From positions 1 through 23,622 of the forward strand of contig JBHIAT010000041.1 in assembly GCA_046758705.1 (NCBI GenBank): 23,622 bases of DNA, written 5' to 3'. The stretch comes from Candidatus Bipolaricaulia bacterium (GTDB lineage Bacteria; Bipolaricaulota; Bipolaricaulia; JBHIAT01). Of this stretch, positions 1,382-15,445 are shown piece by piece. The translations under genes were made by a program, and so were the position numbers. The notes beneath the pieces are model-generated. The model was not told the origin of the DNA and did not search any database. It was given only the letters and a program-made list of their open reading frames with translations. The number at the start of each line of letters is the position of its first letter. The first letter of the stretch is position 1.

Positions 1382-3409
1382 ATGTCCAAACTGGACCGGA
1401 AAGCGACCTCAGTGTTTGCCGGTAAGGTCGTACGCAAGGACCTTGTCAGAAAAGTAAAGGTCGGAGCCAACGTCCCGGTCTTTGTCCTTGAGTACCTGCT
1501 CGGCAAATACTGCGCCACCAACGATCCCGTGGCGATTGATGCGGGTTTGAAAGTGGTCAATTCAACATTGGCCGAGAACTTTGTGCGCCCGGACGAAGCC
1601 AACAAGGTACAGTCCCTCGTCCGTGAGAAAGGAAAGCATACTCTCATTGATAAGGTGAAAGTACGCTATCTTTCTAATGATGACAAATACTGGGCTGAGT
1701 TCGTCAACTTCGGCCACAAATACGTTCATGTCCCGGAGCGTTACATCCGAGAATATGATCGACTCCTCATGGGTGGAATCTGGACCCAAGTTGACATCCA
1801 CCATCAATACGATGATACAGCGACTGGAAAACGGAGCCCGTTTTGGATCGTCGACATGCAACCCATCCAGCTTGGGTCTTTTGATCTCAAAGAATATGGA
1901 GATTGTCGTCAACAGTTCAGTACAGACGAGTGGATCGACCTCCTGGTTCGTAGTATTGGGTTAGAGCCCTTCAACTTTGACAAACGACTCAAGCTCCTGT
2001 TTTTGACGAGACTTATTCCACTATGCGAGCAGAACTTCAATCTTGTCGAGCTGGGTCCCAGAGGTACGGGAAAGTCGTTCGCGTATCAGGAGATATCACC
2101 CTATACCATACTCCTCACGGGACCAACCACAGTAGCAAATCTCTTTTACAACATGGCTACGGGAAGGATGGGTCTTGTTGGTCTATGGGATACTGTTGCC
2201 TTTGACGAGGTGGCCGACCTTCAGAAGATGCAGAAAGAGGTGATCACGACCCTAAAGACTTATTGCGAGTCGGGGAGATTCGCCAGGGGCAAGGAGGCCA
2301 TGTCTGGAAATGCCTCGATCGCTTTGTTTGGAAACACGAACCAGCCGGTCGAGGTCATGGTGCGCTCCTCTCATCTGTTCACACCTATGCCGGATGTGAT
2401 CCGAGAAGACATGGCCTTTCTAGACCGCATCCATTTCTATCTGCCTGGCTGGGAAGTGCCTAAGATGCGGATCGAGTTTTTCACGGACCATTACGGGTTC
2501 GTGGTGGACTATCTGGCCGAGGCCCTGCGGGAGTTGCGCCGCCACAACTTCACAGAGATGATCGACCACCACTTCTCCCTGGGATCGCACCTGAATGCCC
2601 GCGATGTGAAGGCGGTGCGCAAGACGGTGGCCGGTCTGATCAAGCTGATCTATCCCCACAGCGAAGTTTCCAAAGACGAGATGGCCGAAATTGTGGAGCT
2701 GGCCTTGGAGGGGCGTCGCCGAGTGAAAGAGCAACTGAAAAAGATGGGCTCCTTCGAATACCACCAGACGTCCTTTTCCTACGTCGACAGCGAAACCCGT
2801 GAAGAGCGCTACGTTGGGGTGCCGGAAGAAGGCGGACGGAATCTGATCTCTACCGACCCACTCGCACCCGGTTCGGTTTATACGGCTTCAGTAGATGACC
2901 AAGGCAAGGTGGGATTGTATCGTCTCGAAGTCGGGTGTTCACCCGGCACGGGCAAGCTGAAGGTGGCCGGTGGTATTGACAACATCATGAAGGAATCGAT
3001 CCAAAGAGCATTTGCTTACATCCAGGGCCATAAGGTGGACATGGGAATCGCTCAAACTCTTGATACAACGGACTTCCATGTTGAAGCCATTGATCTGTTA
3101 ACCAACCGTATCTCTTGCGATGCTGGCATTGCCCTAGTGGTGGCGATCTACTCTGCGATCAAGAAGCAAGCGGCACTGCCGGGACTGCTGGTCCTTGGTG
3201 ATCTTAGCATTCAGGGGAATATCAAGGCGGTCCGTTTTCTGGCTGAGCCGTTGCAAATGGGCATGGATAACGGGGCTCGGCGCGCTCTGATCCCGATCGA
3301 GAACAAGCGCCACTTCCTGGATGTGTCGGCGGACATCGTGGAACGGGTCGATCCGATCTTCTACAGCGATCCACTGATCGCAGCTATGAAGACATTAGGG
3401 ATGAACTGA
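1382..3409 (+). CDS. brxL: BREX BrxL (AAA+ ATPase with Lon-like C-terminal domain)
   Basis: N-terminal GKVVRKDL and VPVFVLEYLLGKYC; Walker A ELGPRGTGKS; Walker B VAFDEV; AFLDRIH; Lon-like C-terminal domain. Follows pglZ with an RBS-like AAGGA. Confidence 0.93.
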   Translation: MSKLDRKATSVFAGKVVRKDLVRKVKVGANVPVFVLEYLLGKYCATNDPVAIDAGLKVVNSTLAENFVRPDEANKVQSLVREKGKHTLIDKVKVRYLSNDDKYWAEFVNFGHKYVHVPERYIREYDRLLMGGIWTQVDIHHQYDDTATGKRSPFWIVDMQPIQLGSFDLKEYGDCRQQFSTDEWIDLLVRSIGLEPFNFDKRLKLLFLTRLIPLCEQNFNLVELGPRGTGKSFAYQEISPYTILLTGPTTVANLFYNMATGRMGLVGLWDTVAFDEVADLQKMQKEVITTLKTYCESGRFARGKEAMSGNASIALFGNTNQPVEVMVRSSHLFTPMPDVIREDMAFLDRIHFYLPGWEVPKMRIEFFTDHYGFVVDYLAEALRELRRHNFTEMIDHHFSLGSHLNARDVKAVRKTVAGLIKLIYPHSEVSKDEMAEIVELALEGRRRVKEQLKKMGSFEYHQTSFSYVDSETREERYVGVPEEGGRNLISTDPLAPGSVYTASVDDQGKVGLYRLEVGCSPGTGKLKVAGGIDNIMKESIQRAFAYIQGHKVDMGIAQTLDTTDFHVEAIDLLTNRISCDAGIALVVAIYSAIKKQAALPGLLVLGDLSIQGNIKAVRFLAEPLQMGMDNGARRALIPIENKRHFLDVSADIVERVDPIFYSDPLIAAMKTLGMN

Positions 3410-10468: not shown

Positions 10469-10663
10469 ATGGCTGTGCCCAAATACCGAGTATCCAAATC
10501 GCAGGGACGGAAACGCAGGACCCATTATCAGCTCGGACCGGTTACTGTCACCGAATGTCCGCATTGCCACGAGCCAAAACTCCCCCATCGTATCTGTACT
10601 AACTGCGGTTACTATGGCGGCAAGCAAGTCATCTCCGCCGCTGAGACAGAGCAGAAAGGTTAG
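10469..10663 (+). CDS. rpmF: 50S ribosomal protein L32 (zinc-ribbon form)
   Basis: MAVPKYRVSKS...CPHC...PHRICTNCGYY. The start is ATG 10469, not the ORF-track TTG 10340. Confidence 0.96.
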   Translation: MAVPKYRVSKSQGRKRRTHYQLGPVTVTECPHCHEPKLPHRICTNCGYYGGKQVISAAETEQKG

Positions 10664-10753: not shown

Positions 10754-11779
10754 ATGAGCATGAGAATTATCTTAGACACCCTGGGCGGGGACAACCCACC
10801 GGAAGAGATTATTCGCGGTGGCGTGGCGGCGGCAAAGCGTTATGAGGGCATCGAAGTCGCCCTGGCCGGCCGATCGGAGCAGATCAAACCGGAACTGGAG
10901 CGCTGTGATCAATCGGTGACCGACCGGCTATCGATCATTGAGGCTCCGGAGGAGATCTCGATGTTCGAACCTCCGGTCCGAGCCGTCAAGAACAAGACGA
11001 ACTCATCGCTCGTCCGGGGAATCGAGGCATTAAAGGAGGAAGCTCCGGGGCAGGGGGATGCGTTGGTCAGCCCCGGCAACACCGGTGCGGTGATGGCGGC
11101 CGCGCTGTTGAAGCTCGGGCGAATCCGGGGAATCACCCGCCCCGGGATTGCAGCCGCACTGCCGACCCTCAAACAGGAGACGCTGGTCATCGATGTGGGG
11201 GCCAACACAGACTGCTCTCCTGAAAACCTAAAACAGTTCGCGATCATGGGACAGGTCTACGCCCGGGAGATCATGGAAATCGAGGACCCGCGGGTCGGGT
11301 TGCTCAACATCGGCGAGGAGCAGGGGAAGGGATCCGAACTCACGATCAACACCTACACGTTGCTCAAAGAGAGTTCCCTCAACTTCGTGGGGAATGTGGA
11401 GAGCCATTCGCTCATCACCGGCAGGGAGGTCGACGTGGTGGTCTGCGATGGGTTCGTGGGGAACGTGCTGTTGAAGGCCTATGAGGGAGGCGCGGAGGCG
11501 GTGTTGAAGCTGTTGAAGCGGTCGATCGAGCGGGATCTGTGGTCGAGGATCGGCGGACTCATCCTGGAGCCCACGCTACGGAATTTCATCCGAGAGATGA
11601 GTTCGTCTCACTACGGCGGTGCTCCGCTGCTGGGGGTGAAGGGGATCGTGATCATCGCCCATGGCCACGCCGATGCGGTAGCGATCGAGAACGCGATCGG
11701 GGTCGCCCAAAGCTCCGTTGTACAGCGGTTGATCGAGAAGATCCAACGAGGGATCGAGGCGGAGCTGAAGGAGGAGTGA
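10754..11779 (+). CDS. plsX: Phosphate acyltransferase PlsX
   Basis: DTLGGDNPP, SPGNTGA, DVGAN, LLNIGEEQGKG, VCDGFVGN, YGGAPLLG. Confidence 0.96.
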   Translation: MSMRIILDTLGGDNPPEEIIRGGVAAAKRYEGIEVALAGRSEQIKPELERCDQSVTDRLSIIEAPEEISMFEPPVRAVKNKTNSSLVRGIEALKEEAPGQGDALVSPGNTGAVMAAALLKLGRIRGITRPGIAAALPTLKQETLVIDVGANTDCSPENLKQFAIMGQVYAREIMEIEDPRVGLLNIGEEQGKGSELTINTYTLLKESSLNFVGNVESHSLITGREVDVVVCDGFVGNVLLKAYEGGAEAVLKLLKRSIERDLWSRIGGLILEPTLRNFIREMSSSHYGGAPLLGVKGIVIIAHGHADAVAIENAIGVAQSSVVQRLIEKIQRGIEAELKEE

Positions 11780-11783
11780 GGCG

Positions 11784-12767
11784 ATGGCGAACGTTGGCAT
11801 CATCGGGACTGGTGCTTACGTTCCTGATCGGGTGCTGACCAACCACGATCTGGAGCAGATGGTCGAGACCTCGGATGAATGGATCATCCAGAGAACCGGT
11901 ATCCGTGAGCGTCGCATCCTGAGGGAGGATGAGGATCCCTCGGTGATGGGGATCGTCGCCGCTCGGGAGGCGATTGAACGGGCCGGCATCGTGCCTGGGG
12001 ATCTCGATATGGTCATCGTGGCCACCAACGTCCCCGATAGGATCATGCCCGGTTCCGCCCCCTACATTCGCCAGGAGTTGGAGGTCGGCCGGGAGATCCC
12101 GTTCTTCGACGTCATGGCCGGATGCTCCGGCTTCATCTACGCGCTGGAGGTGGCCCGAGGGATGATCGCAACCGGTTCCTACCGCAACGTGCTCGTTGTC
12201 GGGGCTGACGCCATGTCACGAATCCTCGACTGGAAGGACCGATCGACCTGTGTGCTGTTTGGGGATGGCGCCGGGGCGGTGGTCGTCTCTCCAGTGGCGG
12301 GCGACCAGGGCATCCTCTCCTCATCCCTCCACGGGGACAGCTCCATGGCTGACCTCATCAAAATCGAGGCCGGCGGCGCTAAGATGCCGATCACCCCGGA
12401 ACTCGCCCGAAACGGGTTCCAGTACGTCCAGATGGAGGGTGGTGGCGTCTTCAAGAACGCCGTCAAGATGATGGAGAGTTCGACTCAAGAGGCGCTGGAT
12501 CAAGCCGGGGTCAGGCTCCAAGACCTCGATTGGGTCGCACCCCACCAGGCGAACCTGCGCATCATCAAATCACTGGCCGATCGACTTGATGTCCCGATGG
12601 AGAAGGTGCTGGTCAACATCGACCGCTATGCGAACACCTCGGCCGCGACCATCCCGCTGGTCTTGCACGAGGCTGCCGTCGACGGTCGGCTGAAGCCTGG
12701 CAATCTGGTGGTGCTGACCGCCTTCGGGGCGGGCGCGGCCTACGGAGCGATGGTTCTGCGGTGGTAG
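11784..12767 (+). CDS. fabH: 3-oxoacyl-ACP synthase III
   Basis: Catalytic triad motifs AGCSGF, PHQAN and ANTSAA; LFGDGAGA. Confidence 0.96.
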   Translation: MANVGIIGTGAYVPDRVLTNHDLEQMVETSDEWIIQRTGIRERRILREDEDPSVMGIVAAREAIERAGIVPGDLDMVIVATNVPDRIMPGSAPYIRQELEVGREIPFFDVMAGCSGFIYALEVARGMIATGSYRNVLVVGADAMSRILDWKDRSTCVLFGDGAGAVVVSPVAGDQGILSSSLHGDSSMADLIKIEAGGAKMPITPELARNGFQYVQMEGGGVFKNAVKMMESSTQEALDQAGVRLQDLDWVAPHQANLRIIKSLADRLDVPMEKVLVNIDRYANTSAATIPLVLHEAAVDGRLKPGNLVVLTAFGAGAAYGAMVLRW

Positions 12768-12778
12768 CCAGGGGAAAG

Positions 12779-13696
12779 ATGGAGGAACGGACAGCATTCG
12801 TCTTCCCCGGTCAGGGTTCCCAGTCGGTTGGGATGGGACAGCGGTGGTACGAGTGCTACCCGGTAGCGGTAGCCGAGTTCTACGAGCAGGCCGAAGCTGC
12901 CCTGGGCTTCGACATCAAGAAGCTGATCTTTAACGGCCCCGAAGCGGAACTGTCATTGACGGAGAACGCCCAGCCTGCCATCCTGCTCGATAGCATTATC
13001 AAGGATCATCTCCTCAAAGCACAGGGGGTTCGCCCCGAGATTGCCCTGGGACATAGCCTGGGAGAGTATTCAGCGCTGGTGAGCGCCGGGGTGGTTTCGC
13101 TCGAGGATGGCCTGCGATTGGTACGAAAGCGCGGCCGGTTGATGCAGGAGGCCGTCCCCATCGAGCAGGGGGCGATGGTAGCGATCCTCGGGTTGGCGTT
13201 CGACCAGGTCGTGGAGATCTGCGAGGCGGTCGAGGGGATCGCTGAAGTAGCCAACTACAACTCACCGACCCAGATTGTGATCTCCGGCAACCGGGACGCG
13301 GTCTTGGAGGCGGCGAACCGCGCCCAGGAGGCGGGCGCGATCCGGACGATCGAGCTGGAGGTCTCCGCCCCGTTTCACTGTTCTCTGATGGCTCCCGCTC
13401 AGGCCGGGTTGAAACGGAAGATCGCCGCAGTAAAATTTAGACGGCCAGCGTTCCCGGTGATCATGACGGTCAGCGGGCAGCTGGAGACAGAGTCCAAGGT
13501 GATCAAGGAGTTGCTCACCCGTCAGATCACCAGCCCGGTCCGTTGGGTTGATTATATCGAACGGTTGAGGCCGGAGGGGATCGAACGAACGATCGAGGTG
13601 GGGCCGGGGCAGGTTCTGACCGGGTTGAATCGGAGGATCACCCGCGAGATGGAACATCTCCGATTCTCCGATGCGATAAAGGCAAAGGCGTCATAG
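12779..13696 (+). CDS. fabD: Malonyl-CoA:ACP transacylase
   Basis: FPGQGSQ, GHSLGEY, VSAPFHC. Likely start is ATG 12779. The last codon and the TAG stop lie inside the adjacent mobile element end. Confidence 0.95.
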   Translation: MEERTAFVFPGQGSQSVGMGQRWYECYPVAVAEFYEQAEAALGFDIKKLIFNGPEAELSLTENAQPAILLDSIIKDHLLKAQGVRPEIALGHSLGEYSALVSAGVVSLEDGLRLVRKRGRLMQEAVPIEQGAMVAILGLAFDQVVEICEAVEGIAEVANYNSPTQIVISGNRDAVLEAANRAQEAGAIRTIELEVSAPFHCSLMAPAQAGLKRKIAAVKFRRPAFPVIMTVSGQLETESKVIKELLTRQITSPVRWVDYIERLRPEGIERTIEVGPGQVLTGLNRRITREMEHLRFSDAIKAKAS

Positions 13697-13906
13697 ACCC
13701 CACGCTTAACGGCGGGGGCTTGTGAGGTGATGAAATGAACAAGCCCATCTATGACCAGGTCTAGCGCCGGAGCCGATGGCAAGGCAACGATGGCGCTCCG
13801 TTGGAGGCGGGATAGCAGATCCACCCTGGAGTGCTTCCCCAGCCCCAGGCTCTGGAAGGCTGAACTGCAGACAACCTTTGGGGTAAGGACGAAACGGGCT
13901 CAGCCC
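13690..13906 (+). ncRNA. IscB-type omegaRNA (HEARO-like) scaffold, probably 3' truncated
   Basis: Perfect pairings GTCATAGA (13690-97)/TCTATGAC (13748-55) and GGGCTTGT (13716-23)/ACAAGCCC (13739-46); AGCGCC/GGCGCT; CCTGG...CTTCCCC...CCAGG; GGCTGA...TCAGCC. The layout matches the HEARO/omegaRNA pattern as I recall it. Confidence 0.75.
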
Positions 13907-13911
13907 TATTT

Positions 13912-13990
13912 AGTCAACAGTCAATGAGTCGACAGTCCATGGTCAACGGATCCAGACTGACGACTATGGACTTATGGACTATGGACTATG
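13912..13990. repeat. Inverted array of tandem 7-bp repeats
   Basis: AGTCAAC-AGTCAAT-(G)-AGTCGAC-AGTCCAT-GGTCAAC, a central GGATCC, then GACTGAC-GACTATG-GACTTATG-GACTATG-GACTATG. AGTCCAT is the reverse complement of ATGGACT. Confidence 0.9.
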
Positions 13991-14283
13991 TGGAATCGAA
14001 CGCGGTTTGGGCTTGTGAAGACGCACGCACTGGACGCCCTGTGCGTGGGCGAGGTCACAGGGATGTCGAGTGCGAGTGCCGGGTTGCCCGTCCTGGGAAT
14101 CCGGGCGATAGGTCGGGGGCGGCGGTGTCGGACCAACACGGACGCCTTTGGGTTCCCGCGCGGGTATCGGATGCGCCGAAAGCGGGTACAGGGGATGGGT
14201 ACGAGTACGAAACCAAAGGAGGGAGCGGTGGCACCTCCCCACGTTTGAAGATGGGGGCTTCCGCCGCCGCTTGGTCCAGGTGA
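13991..14283 (+). pseudogene. iscB: iscB (RRXRR-family) 3' remnant: RuvC-III region plus extreme C-terminus
   Basis: WNRTRFGLVKTHALDALCVG (RuvC-III H..DA), then GRGRRCRTNTDAFGFPRGYRMRRKRVQG. After a frame change, DGYEY...PRLKMGAS...TGA at 14281-83, resembling IscB C-termini. Confidence 0.8.
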
Positions 14284-14337
14284 TTGTCGATGGCTGAAGC
14301 CAAAGGGAAAGAGAAAGGGAAGGGGAAGGGAGAACGG

Positions 14338-15066
14338 ATGCGGTTTGTGGACAAGGTTGGGGTGGTAACCGGTGGGACGCTGGGGATCGGAAAAGCGATC
14401 GCTACCGCGCTCGTCCGGGAGGGGGCGACCGTTGCTATTCTGGCGCGGAACGAGGAGCGGGGACGCCAGGTCGAGGCAGCGCTCGGTGAGCACGCCCGGT
14501 TCTTCCCGGCCGACGTGGCCGACTTCGACGCGATGCAGGAGATGGCGCGGCAGATCTACGCGGCGTTCGGACGGATCGATCTGCTGATCAACAACGCCGG
14601 AATCATCCGGGACGGATTGCTGATGCGTATGAGTGAGGAAGACTGGGATCGCGTGCTGGAGGTTAACCTCAAAGGGGCGTTCAACTGCACGCGGGCGTTC
14701 ATCCGTTATATGCTGAAACAGCGGGCAGGGGCGATCGTCAACCTGTCTTCGATCGTCGGTCAGTTGGGAAACCCCGGTCAGGCCAATTACACGTCGGCGA
14801 AGGCCGGGCTCATCGGGTTGACCAAAACCATCGCCCGCGAATTCGCCTCGCGGGGGATCCGCGCCAACGTGGTCGCCCCCGGCTTCATCAACACCCGGCT
14901 GACTCAAGATTTGAACCAGAAGCGTCGTGACGCCTACCTCCAGCAGACCGCCATGGGTCGGTACGGCGACCCTGAGGAGGTCGCGCGGGCGGTCCTGTTC
15001 TTGCTCTCCGATGATGCCTCTTACATCACCGGCCAGGTGCTAAACGTCGATGGAGGTGTGTTATAG
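14338..15066 (+). CDS. fabG: 3-oxoacyl-ACP reductase
   Basis: TGGTLGIG, NNAGI, GNPGQANYTSAK, ITGQVLNVDGG. Likely start is ATG 14338 after AGGGAG. Confidence 0.95.
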   Translation: MRFVDKVGVVTGGTLGIGKAIATALVREGATVAILARNEERGRQVEAALGEHARFFPADVADFDAMQEMARQIYAAFGRIDLLINNAGIIRDGLLMRMSEEDWDRVLEVNLKGAFNCTRAFIRYMLKQRAGAIVNLSSIVGQLGNPGQANYTSAKAGLIGLTKTIAREFASRGIRANVVAPGFINTRLTQDLNQKRRDAYLQQTAMGRYGDPEEVARAVLFLLSDDASYITGQVLNVDGGVL

Positions 15067-15196: not shown

Positions 15197-15445
15197 GTGC
15201 CGGAGATTGCCGACAAAATCAAGAAGATCATTGAGGAGCAACTGATGGTCGATGGAACGGAGATCACCGAGAACGCCTCGTTCGTGGACGACCTGGGAGC
15301 TGACTCTCTCGATACCGTCGAGATGGTCATGGAGTTCGAGGACGAGTTCGGTGTCGAGATCCCCGATGAGGATGCGGAGAAGTTGCAGACGGTGGGACAG
15401 GCGATTGAGTATCTGACGCGGTTGATTGGAGAGAGCCACAATTAG
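15197..15445 (+). CDS. acpP: Acyl carrier protein
   Basis: Phosphopantetheine site [14 protein letters not shown] start after GGAGGTG. Confidence 0.97.

Follow-up and report, generated by a model that had tools for sequence, protein, structure and literature searches.

We analysed a stretch of 23,622 nucleotides from a Candidatus Bipolaricaulia bacterium (hereafter the window), which is contig C41 (JBHIAT010000041.1) of a 3.7-Mb, 319-contig genome assembly (GCA_046758705.1, genome G000). The open reading frames (ORFs) and their Pfam matches place an rpmF-plsX-fabH-fabD-fabG-acpP operon on its + strand (Table 1). In this operon, the fabD stop codon and the ATG start codon of fabG are 641 nt apart, and a 590-bp element lies at the junction of the two genes. 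We present evidence that this element is very probably a decayed, non-autonomous relic of an IscB (OMEGA) element of the IS200/IS605 type that is most likely inert.

A guide RNA scaffold at the fabD stop codon

The fabD gene terminates in GCG TCA TAG. Its closing 7 nt, GTCATAG (13690-13696), are also the opening 7 nt of a match to HEARO (RF02033), an RNA family since recognized as the omegaRNA of IscB. This was the one strong match in an Rfam scan that covered positions 13000-15000. The scaffold is thus located at one end of the element and abuts the host DNA that would supply the guide, namely the 3' end of fabD. The 16-mer at 13674-13689 has no second exact match in the genome; no site with one mismatch or fewer was found elsewhere in the genome, and the matches with two or three mismatches never precede NTGA. 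A promoter and terminator scan found no terminator-like site on the + strand within the element, and it flagged a promoter-like site at 13409-13436 within fabD, which is a consensus match only.

According to the Rfam alignment, the 5' domain of the guide RNA is intact and comprises an 8-bp P1 stem, two hairpins, one further hairpin, the conserved GUGCUUCCCCAGC loop hairpin and the long hairpin after it. The predicted fold is more stable than those of shuffled sequences (z -2.80). The 3' third is degenerate. In the same alignment, the central stem of the window RNA retains 5 of 11 pairs, with five model positions deleted on each strand; the guide RNAs of two related elements of the same genome, on contigs C1 and C14, have no deleted positions in this stem, and two non-standard pairs are marked in each. 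Three of the five pairs of the bracketed pseudoknot are left, and two of these three are G-U.

The conserved loop appears to have lost its partner as well. From the Rfam consensus, we read a pairing of the loop with the 3' strand (UUCGCC with GGCGAA), which is our own reading and is unmarked in the structure line of the model. In a low-power shuffling test, the best partner of the loop within the window element is 5 nt long, which 371 of 500 shuffles equal or exceed. The C14 RNA may form a 7-nt pairing (GUGAGCC with GGCUCAC; equalled by 32 of 500 shuffles) and the C1 RNA one of 6 nt (GCUUCC with GGAAGC; 166 of 500). The original prediction, which had been made from the nucleotides alone, stated that no pseudoknot partner of the CUUCCCC loop could be seen and that the omegaRNA is probably truncated. 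The first point agrees with these results. The second is only partly right, as the match covers model positions 1-211 in full and the 3' third has degenerated rather than been cut off.

An exact complement of the CUUCCCC loop (13835-13841, 471 nt upstream) does occur outside the element: GGGGAAG, at 14322-14328, is part of a purine-rich (AAAGGG)n tract identified by TRF at 14302-14331 before the fabG ATG. The element could in principle have been domesticated as a cis-regulatory RNA that tunes fabG and acpP, for instance through this 7-nt pairing ahead of the fabG start, and its fixation in all metagenomic runs described below would suit such a role. However, a purine repeat of low complexity may well contain a 7-mer of this kind, the element has no counterpart in relatives that could lend comparative support, and stem-breaking mutations are tolerated. 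The match is probably due to chance, and we regard a regulatory function of this kind as extremely unlikely.

The IscB remnant

A tblastn comparison of the 801-nt stretch 13600-14400 with the sole intact IscB of the genome, a protein of 434 residues encoded by the C1 element, gave a single significant HSP, a 76-residue remnant that is 54% identical to C1 IscB residues 289-365 (E 2e-20; E 9.6e-16 for the same alignment in a search of the whole genome). The KTHALDALCVG sequence of the window lies opposite KSHALDALCVG of C1, the RuvC-III motif, and the remnant also carries the RGRG..R.N.D.(Y/F)GFPRGY block. Residues 1-288 of the C1 protein have no match in 13600-14400; therefore, the PLMP/RRXRR region, RuvC-I, RuvC-II and HNH are gone. 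Of the features of a full IscB protein (PLMP/RRXRR, RuvC-I, -II and -III, and HNH), the window thus keeps only what lies in residues 289-365 of 434. The C-terminal DGYEY motif is found in another frame than the remnant. It corresponds to the position of DGYSY in C1, nine residues from the C-terminus of that protein, and hence about 59 further codons have been lost between QTGD and DGY, with a frame shift.

None of the three small ORFs of the element matches a Pfam family; the Pfam RRXRR profile spans only the N-terminus of IscB, which is lost here. The NCBIfam guided_IscB profile aligns with the remnant at its very end (288-314 of 314), with 16.7 bits for a cut-off of 175 (E 0.003), and a sequence search of the PDB returned only a weak match, to TbaIscB (9k30_A, E 1.1), at the RuvC-III motif. 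In a phylum-wide search, the 76-residue remnant had matches in 2 of 184 genomes including G000, and the other match is 37% identical. A contig scan yielded three loci, of which two are 49% and 51% identical across residues 4-76 and the third is 69% identical across just 28 residues. The C1 protein (54-57%) was therefore kept as the best reference.

The searches for a guide RNA in the 5' part and for IscB similarity in the peptide therefore bear out the initial proposal of an IscB-type element, which had held that THALDALCVG and DGYEY are kept and that PLMP, RuvC-I/II and HNH are missing. As the guide RNA and the ends of the element are recognizable and the protein is not complete, the element represents the remnant of an IscB member, not a working member.

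A deletion scar made of short tandem repeats stands in place of the 3' tail of the guide RNA, the start of iscB and codons 1-288 (Table 1).

Boundaries of the element and the intact C1 copy

Joining position 13689 to 14280 in the fabD frame gives GCG TGA, by direct reading. The original fabD stop codon would therefore have been the TGA within the GTGA motif that flanks the element. Because the element and its flank both open with GT, this boundary is uncertain by 1-2 nt.

The C1 element (C1:49379-51025, 1647 bp) provides an independent view of the ends. Its IscB matches RRXRR (242 bits) and HNH (45.7 bits) in Pfam and guided_IscB (441.8 bits) in NCBIfam. It opens with GTCA, and it closes with CTG followed by GTGA: the window element ends in CCAG and the C1 element in TCTG, each directly before GTGA. 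The C1 copy lies within a dipeptide-epimerase-like gene, which it splits between the residues equivalent to 135 and 136 of PDB entry 1jpm_A. The upstream host fragment ends in ...LETDYT and aligns up to residue 135, and the downstream fragment, read from the GTG of GTGA, begins VSLGEVEAM..., with its residue 2 aligned to residue 137. The host gene is thus contiguous across 49379-51025, and GTGA there is therefore host sequence. This host gene (locus C1:49232-51481) also lacks approximately residues 50-111 of 1jpm_A and ends early, and so is a pseudogene.

When aligned at their 3' ends, the elements of the window, C1 and C14 all show the DGYxY codons, a GGAGG..CCTCC-type hairpin and a GCTTCCG block, which TGAAG.TG precedes in the window and C1 elements. 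A 24-nt hairpin motif, CCCCAC...GGGGGCTT, is present near both tips of the window element in copies that are 79% identical, and the elements on C1 and C14 each have it at their start too. In IS200/IS605 elements, subterminal hairpins lie at unequal distances from the tips and there is no target duplication; the hairpins of IS608 follow this pattern. The window element has ends of this type: each carries a subterminal hairpin, the target is not duplicated, and a short motif flanks the end opposite the guide RNA. The assignment of boundaries at 13690 and 14279 by homology is thus supported, with the C1 copy as independent support. That the element starts with GTCATAG and is followed by GTGA, and that a join across it gives GCG TGA, had been predicted beforehand, and each of these statements could be read directly or matched to the C1 copy.

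The C14 element (C14:4557 to about 5976), a third and more distant IscB copy, has the top HEARO score of the genome, 117.9 bits. Its IscB shows 38% protein identity and has lost HNH by an internal deletion (CAYCEVENVPLEVEVGTSG...). It is followed by TAGT, not GTGA, and the GTGA motif is therefore lineage-specific. The window scaffold is 70% identical to that of C1 at the DNA level (over query positions 8-209), and this scaffold is its only other genomic DNA match; the window element is otherwise single-copy. Judging from these sequences, the window and C1 elements are diverged lineages and not recent copies.

Well-preserved ends raise the question of whether the element can still move, as a miniature element of the palindrome-associated type that a Y1 TnpA from another locus of the genome could excise. 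Its two ends can be aligned with those of C1 and C14, the hairpin motif is found at each of them, and the genome has six Y1_Tnp matches, all above the Pfam cut-off, although one contains an internal TGA and one is partial. Against this, the element exists as a single copy, and none of the six TnpA matches is on a contig with any of the eight HEARO matches, a comparison of contig lists and not of neighbourhoods. The excised allele was not seen in four metagenomic runs either. We consider continued mobility highly improbable.

Table 1. Features of the element and of the surrounding operon (window coordinates)
Feature	Coordinates	Strand	Basis
Whole decayed IscB (OMEGA) element, 590 bp	13690-14279	+	HEARO start, IscB homology, comparison with C1 and C14
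Guide RNA (omegaRNA) scaffold, HEARO RF02033	13690-13933	+	64.4 bits, E 3.3e-12, model 1-211 of 211
Predicted guide segment (host fabD 3' end; putative guide function)	13673-13689	+	Directly 5' of scaffold
Element-derived last Ser codon and TAG stop of fabD	13691-13696	+	Element start at 13690
Subterminal hairpin, guide RNA end (CCCCAC...GGGGGCTT)	13698-13721	+	8 nt from tip; direct repeat of 14237-14260
Deletion scar, short tandem repeats (AGTCAAC-like units, then GACTATG four times)	13912-13990	+	TRF (13912-13947, 13962-13990); alignment with C1
IscB remnant, RuvC-III region to start of C-terminal domain	13976-14203	+	tblastn against C1 IscB residues 289-365
DGYEY C-terminal motif, other frame than remnant	14194-14208	+	DNA-level alignment with C1 DGYSY and C14 DGYAY
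Subterminal hairpin, far end	14237-14260	+	19 nt from tip; 3'-end alignment with C1 and C14
GTGA, flanking putative target-adjacent motif	14280-14283	+	GTGA also 3' of C1 element
Probable original fabD stop TGA	14281-14283	+	Within GTGA flank
rpmF	about 10469-10663	+	ORF list/Pfam
plsX	10754-11779	+	ORF list/Pfam
fabH	11784-12767	+	ORF list/Pfam
fabD (malonyl-CoA:ACP transacylase)	12761-13696	+	ORF list; Pfam Acyl_transf_1, E 1.1e-41
fabG (3-oxoacyl-ACP reductase)	14338-15066 (probable start ATG 14338)	+	Downstream of purine-rich tract 14302-14331
acpP	15197-15445	+	ORF list/Pfam

Support for insertion from relatives and metagenomes

We surveyed the gap between fabD and fabG at 99 related loci, 93 of which have a FabD match and 55 also an adjacent, co-oriented FabG match. 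At these 55 loci, a median of 2 nt (range -17 to 154) separates the fabD stop from the position that corresponds to residue 1 of FabG; in the window, the figure is 641 nt. Without the element, the gap in the window would be 54 nt, and two of the closest relatives have gaps of 47-48 nt. The gap architecture thus supports insertion, and the support that relatives provide is architectural only. Among the related genomes listed, G000 is the sole member of its family and genus, and at 3.7 Mb its assembly is about twice the size of every one of them (1.1-2.3 Mb).

The runs that carry contig C41 are labelled hydrothermal vent metagenome. We compared the contigs of four runs from one study (X1 to X4) with positions 13200-14800 of the window; X1 to X3 are possibly the source samples of the assembly itself. 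In X1 and X2, one contig each spans the entire region with no difference, and in X3 two overlapping contigs jointly cover it with two differences. Run X4 contains a sister strain that is roughly 99% identical, in which a contig covering 13448-13759 bridges the fabD-element junction with three differences, all of them in fabD. The element is therefore present in all four runs, and no joint skipping 13690-14279 was found in their contigs; the only joint listed, from 14374 to 14590, is in fabG and comes from other contigs. As the X1 and X2 contigs are identical to the window, the junctions are not a binning artefact, with the reservation that X1 to X3 may be the source of the assembly. From the four runs together, we conclude that the relic has reached fixation in the population sampled and did not arise during assembly.

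The sister strain also sheds light on the state of the guide RNA. Within 13763-13938, the X4 contig differs from the window at 13830 and 13864 only. At both positions, the A of the window creates an A.C mismatch in a conserved stem, and X4 has the pairing G. This points to relaxed constraint in the window lineage, on the basis of a single contig of depth 4.5. The repeat copy number of the deletion scar differs by 8 nt at 13965 in X4. Further X4 variants, at 14229-14252 and 13760/13762, were set aside; they are dense, near contig ends, of low depth and possibly derived from paralogous elements of other organisms.

A number of observations weigh against the interpretation of the element as an inert inserted relic. 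No empty site was found in a search of 41 genomes, including G000, with 1.8 kb of DNA, which yielded only class-level relatives, at 63-73% DNA identity with a few matches of less than 50 nt of up to 90%. Among metagenomic relatives of FabD (the best 80 of 541 were kept), none exceeds 51% identity, and no base-level alignment of the site was possible. Because no genome or read set contains an empty site, we infer the insertion rather than see it. The HEARO score of 64.4 bits is below the Rfam gathering score of 83. This is not the sign of a false match, because the IsrB-type copies of the same genome score lower still: the genome has eight HEARO matches, among which the window copy has E 1.5e-12, two exceed 83 bits, and two apparently full-length IsrB-type copies (on contigs C73 and C18) and one cut by a contig end (C162) have 54-59 bits. 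Preservation is good in the 5' domain, in the loop hairpin and at both ends, and the predicted fold is more stable than chance, so that some residual function is possible. The presence of the element in all runs, including a sister strain that has diverged by about 1%, could reflect retention or mere fixation. Finally, the differences in the sister strain rest on single contigs of low depth.

Other OMEGA elements of the genome

The genome contains a second OMEGA family, IsrB-like and without HNH, with copies at C18:22978 to about 24326, C73:14544 to about 15902, C162:7280-7933, C9:15906 to about 16295 and C151:1977 to about 2366. The C18 and C73 copies have long, open IsrB-like frames, and the C162 copy is cut by the contig end. 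Those on C9 and C151 consist of a guide RNA only, are approximately 390 bp long and are 99.5% identical to each other, with fragments on C266 and C301. All copies of this family share the far end ...CTATGG, and in C18 (lpdA-like gene) and C9 (nucleotidyltransferase gene) the ATG within it serves the gene that follows as start codon. Start codons seem to be the landing sites of this family, much as a TGA stop is for that of the window.

Another reading of the window element is that of a guide-only element that is active in trans. Its guide RNA would be loaded onto the IscB of C1 and direct the cleavage of chromosomes devoid of the element, whose target would be the 3' end of fabD beside GTGA, and recombination would then restore the relic without any nuclease of its own. 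With the element present, the guide match precedes GTCA and not GTGA, so there would be no self-targeting. The genome has an intact IscB whose element has the same GTGA flank, the window RNA retains its 5' domain and conserved hairpin, and the element shares the orientation of the upstream gene, which the biogenesis of IscB guide RNAs requires according to a preprint (Meers et al., bioRxiv 10.1101/2023.03.14.532601). The C9 and C151 pair, of another family, likewise exists as guide RNA without protein. Nevertheless, the scaffold is just 70% and the protein remnant just 54% identical to their C1 counterparts, and the two elements are thus no cognate pair. The eroded central stem and pseudoknot, the loop without a recognizable partner and the A.C mismatches in conserved stems also speak against a working guide. 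We therefore judge this reading quite improbable. The same low credence applies to its extension, that the relic is kept through the C1 IscB and that OMEGA families may colonise operons by means of flanking motifs that coincide with gene punctuation. The GTGA of the window family contains a TGA stop, and the IsrB-like family ends on a start ATG (C18 and C9). If the extension were true, an insertion would cost the host almost nothing, and the guide RNA would be certain to be transcribed by read-through.

Other observations were made in the course of these searches. The locus of the C14 element (L001) harbours a c-di-GMP-I-GGC riboswitch on its minus strand (L001:1241-1314; 70.4 bits for a gathering score of 59). 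Fourteen of the approximate matches to the guide 16-mer, with two or three mismatches, contain AAAGGCAAAC[CT]C, a sequence also found in the c-di-GMP-I-GGC consensus, and the genome may thus have further copies of this riboswitch. On C101, two more copies of the end-hairpin motif, CCCCACGGCTA.AGCCGGGGG(T)CTT, occur at 2391-2414 (-) and 12162-12184 (+), in opposite orientations about 9.8 kb apart, and possibly mark the tips of further elements of the IS200/IS605 type.

Proposed history of the element and its significance

The evidence above favours the following history for the relic. An IscB element, probably mobilized by a Y1 transposase acting in trans, would have inserted beside GTGA, without target duplication and directly 5' of the motif whose TGA presumably ended fabD, in the same orientation as the operon. 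The fabD stop would have been displaced, with the first bases of the element, G TCA TAG, now closing the gene, so that FabD would carry one extra serine. The guide RNA would be transcribed by read-through from the operon, and fabG would have retained its own start region. The element has since lost the 3' tail of the guide RNA and IscB codons 1-288, with about 70 nt of tandem repeats in their place, as well as about 59 codons near the C-terminus together with the reading frame. What remains is the 5' two thirds of the scaffold, a 76-residue fragment with only RuvC-III, and both transposon ends. As no nuclease is encoded and the long-range pairings appear to be lost, the element is most likely inert and would persist as a spacer of 590 nt that is transcribed with the operon and does it no harm.

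Taken alone, the window presents an ordinary decayed insertion sequence of the known IscB kind, of modest value. It nevertheless offers an example, at the level of single bases, of an IscB element placed on a TGA stop within an essential operon without harm, with a new stop one codon later. The order of decay is also visible, with the nuclease gene lost first and the 3' pairings of the guide RNA apparently thereafter. The contiguity of the C1 host gene fixes a precise boundary and a GTGA flank for an IscB lineage, which is useful for the prediction of target-adjacent motifs (TAMs). In addition, no fewer than two OMEGA families occur in this hydrothermal-vent lineage; across its phylum, the search with the IscB remnant gave matches in only 2 of 184 genomes. 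Our literature search returned no publications on standalone or decayed IscB-HEARO relics, although relics at stop codons may already have been described.

Comparison with known systems

According to Meers et al. (bioRxiv 10.1101/2023.03.14.532601), the guides of IscB lie outside the transposon boundary, the biogenesis of the guide RNA needs transcription from outside the element, IscB elements tend to share the orientation of the upstream gene, and the TAM, which is TTCAT in the case of GstIscB, is found on the 5' side of the left end. The ISGst5 type of Geobacillus stearothermophilus that they describe resembles the window element in several respects: one transposon end bounds the scaffold, the neighbouring host DNA provides the guide, element and upstream gene point the same way, tnpA is absent from the element, and a short motif flanks the other end. 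The motifs themselves differ, with TTCAT (ATGAA on the iscB strand, in our reading) for the former and GTGA (TCAC on the other strand) for the latter. Unlike ISGst5, the window element has its iscB cut down to 76 residues with RuvC-III only, the 3' part of its guide RNA is degenerate and its flank is not AT-rich.

As a HEARO RNA, the window scaffold covers the full RF02033 model, which according to Meers et al. does not include the elements further downstream. It shares with the family the P1 stem, both 5' hairpins and the loop hairpin with its conserved GCUUC..CAG. It departs from the family by its score below the gathering threshold, the deletions in its central stem, a poorly supported pseudoknot and the lack of a functional IscB ORF downstream. 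A further comparison is with the C1 element, which has a homologous scaffold, protein region and 3' end, the same GTCA start and the same GTGA flank. In contrast to the 590 bp of the window copy, the C1 element comprises 1647 bp and codes for a 434-residue IscB with RRXRR and HNH. Palindrome-associated transposable elements (PATEs) are protein-less derivatives of IS200/IS605 elements, according to the same preprint (Meers et al., bioRxiv 10.1101/2023.03.14.532601). Like them, the window element has kept its transposon ends and has no working protein gene. PATEs defined by both ends, no protein and several dispersed copies are nonetheless unlike this single-copy element with its recognizable gene debris, and the C9 and C151 copies fit that description better.

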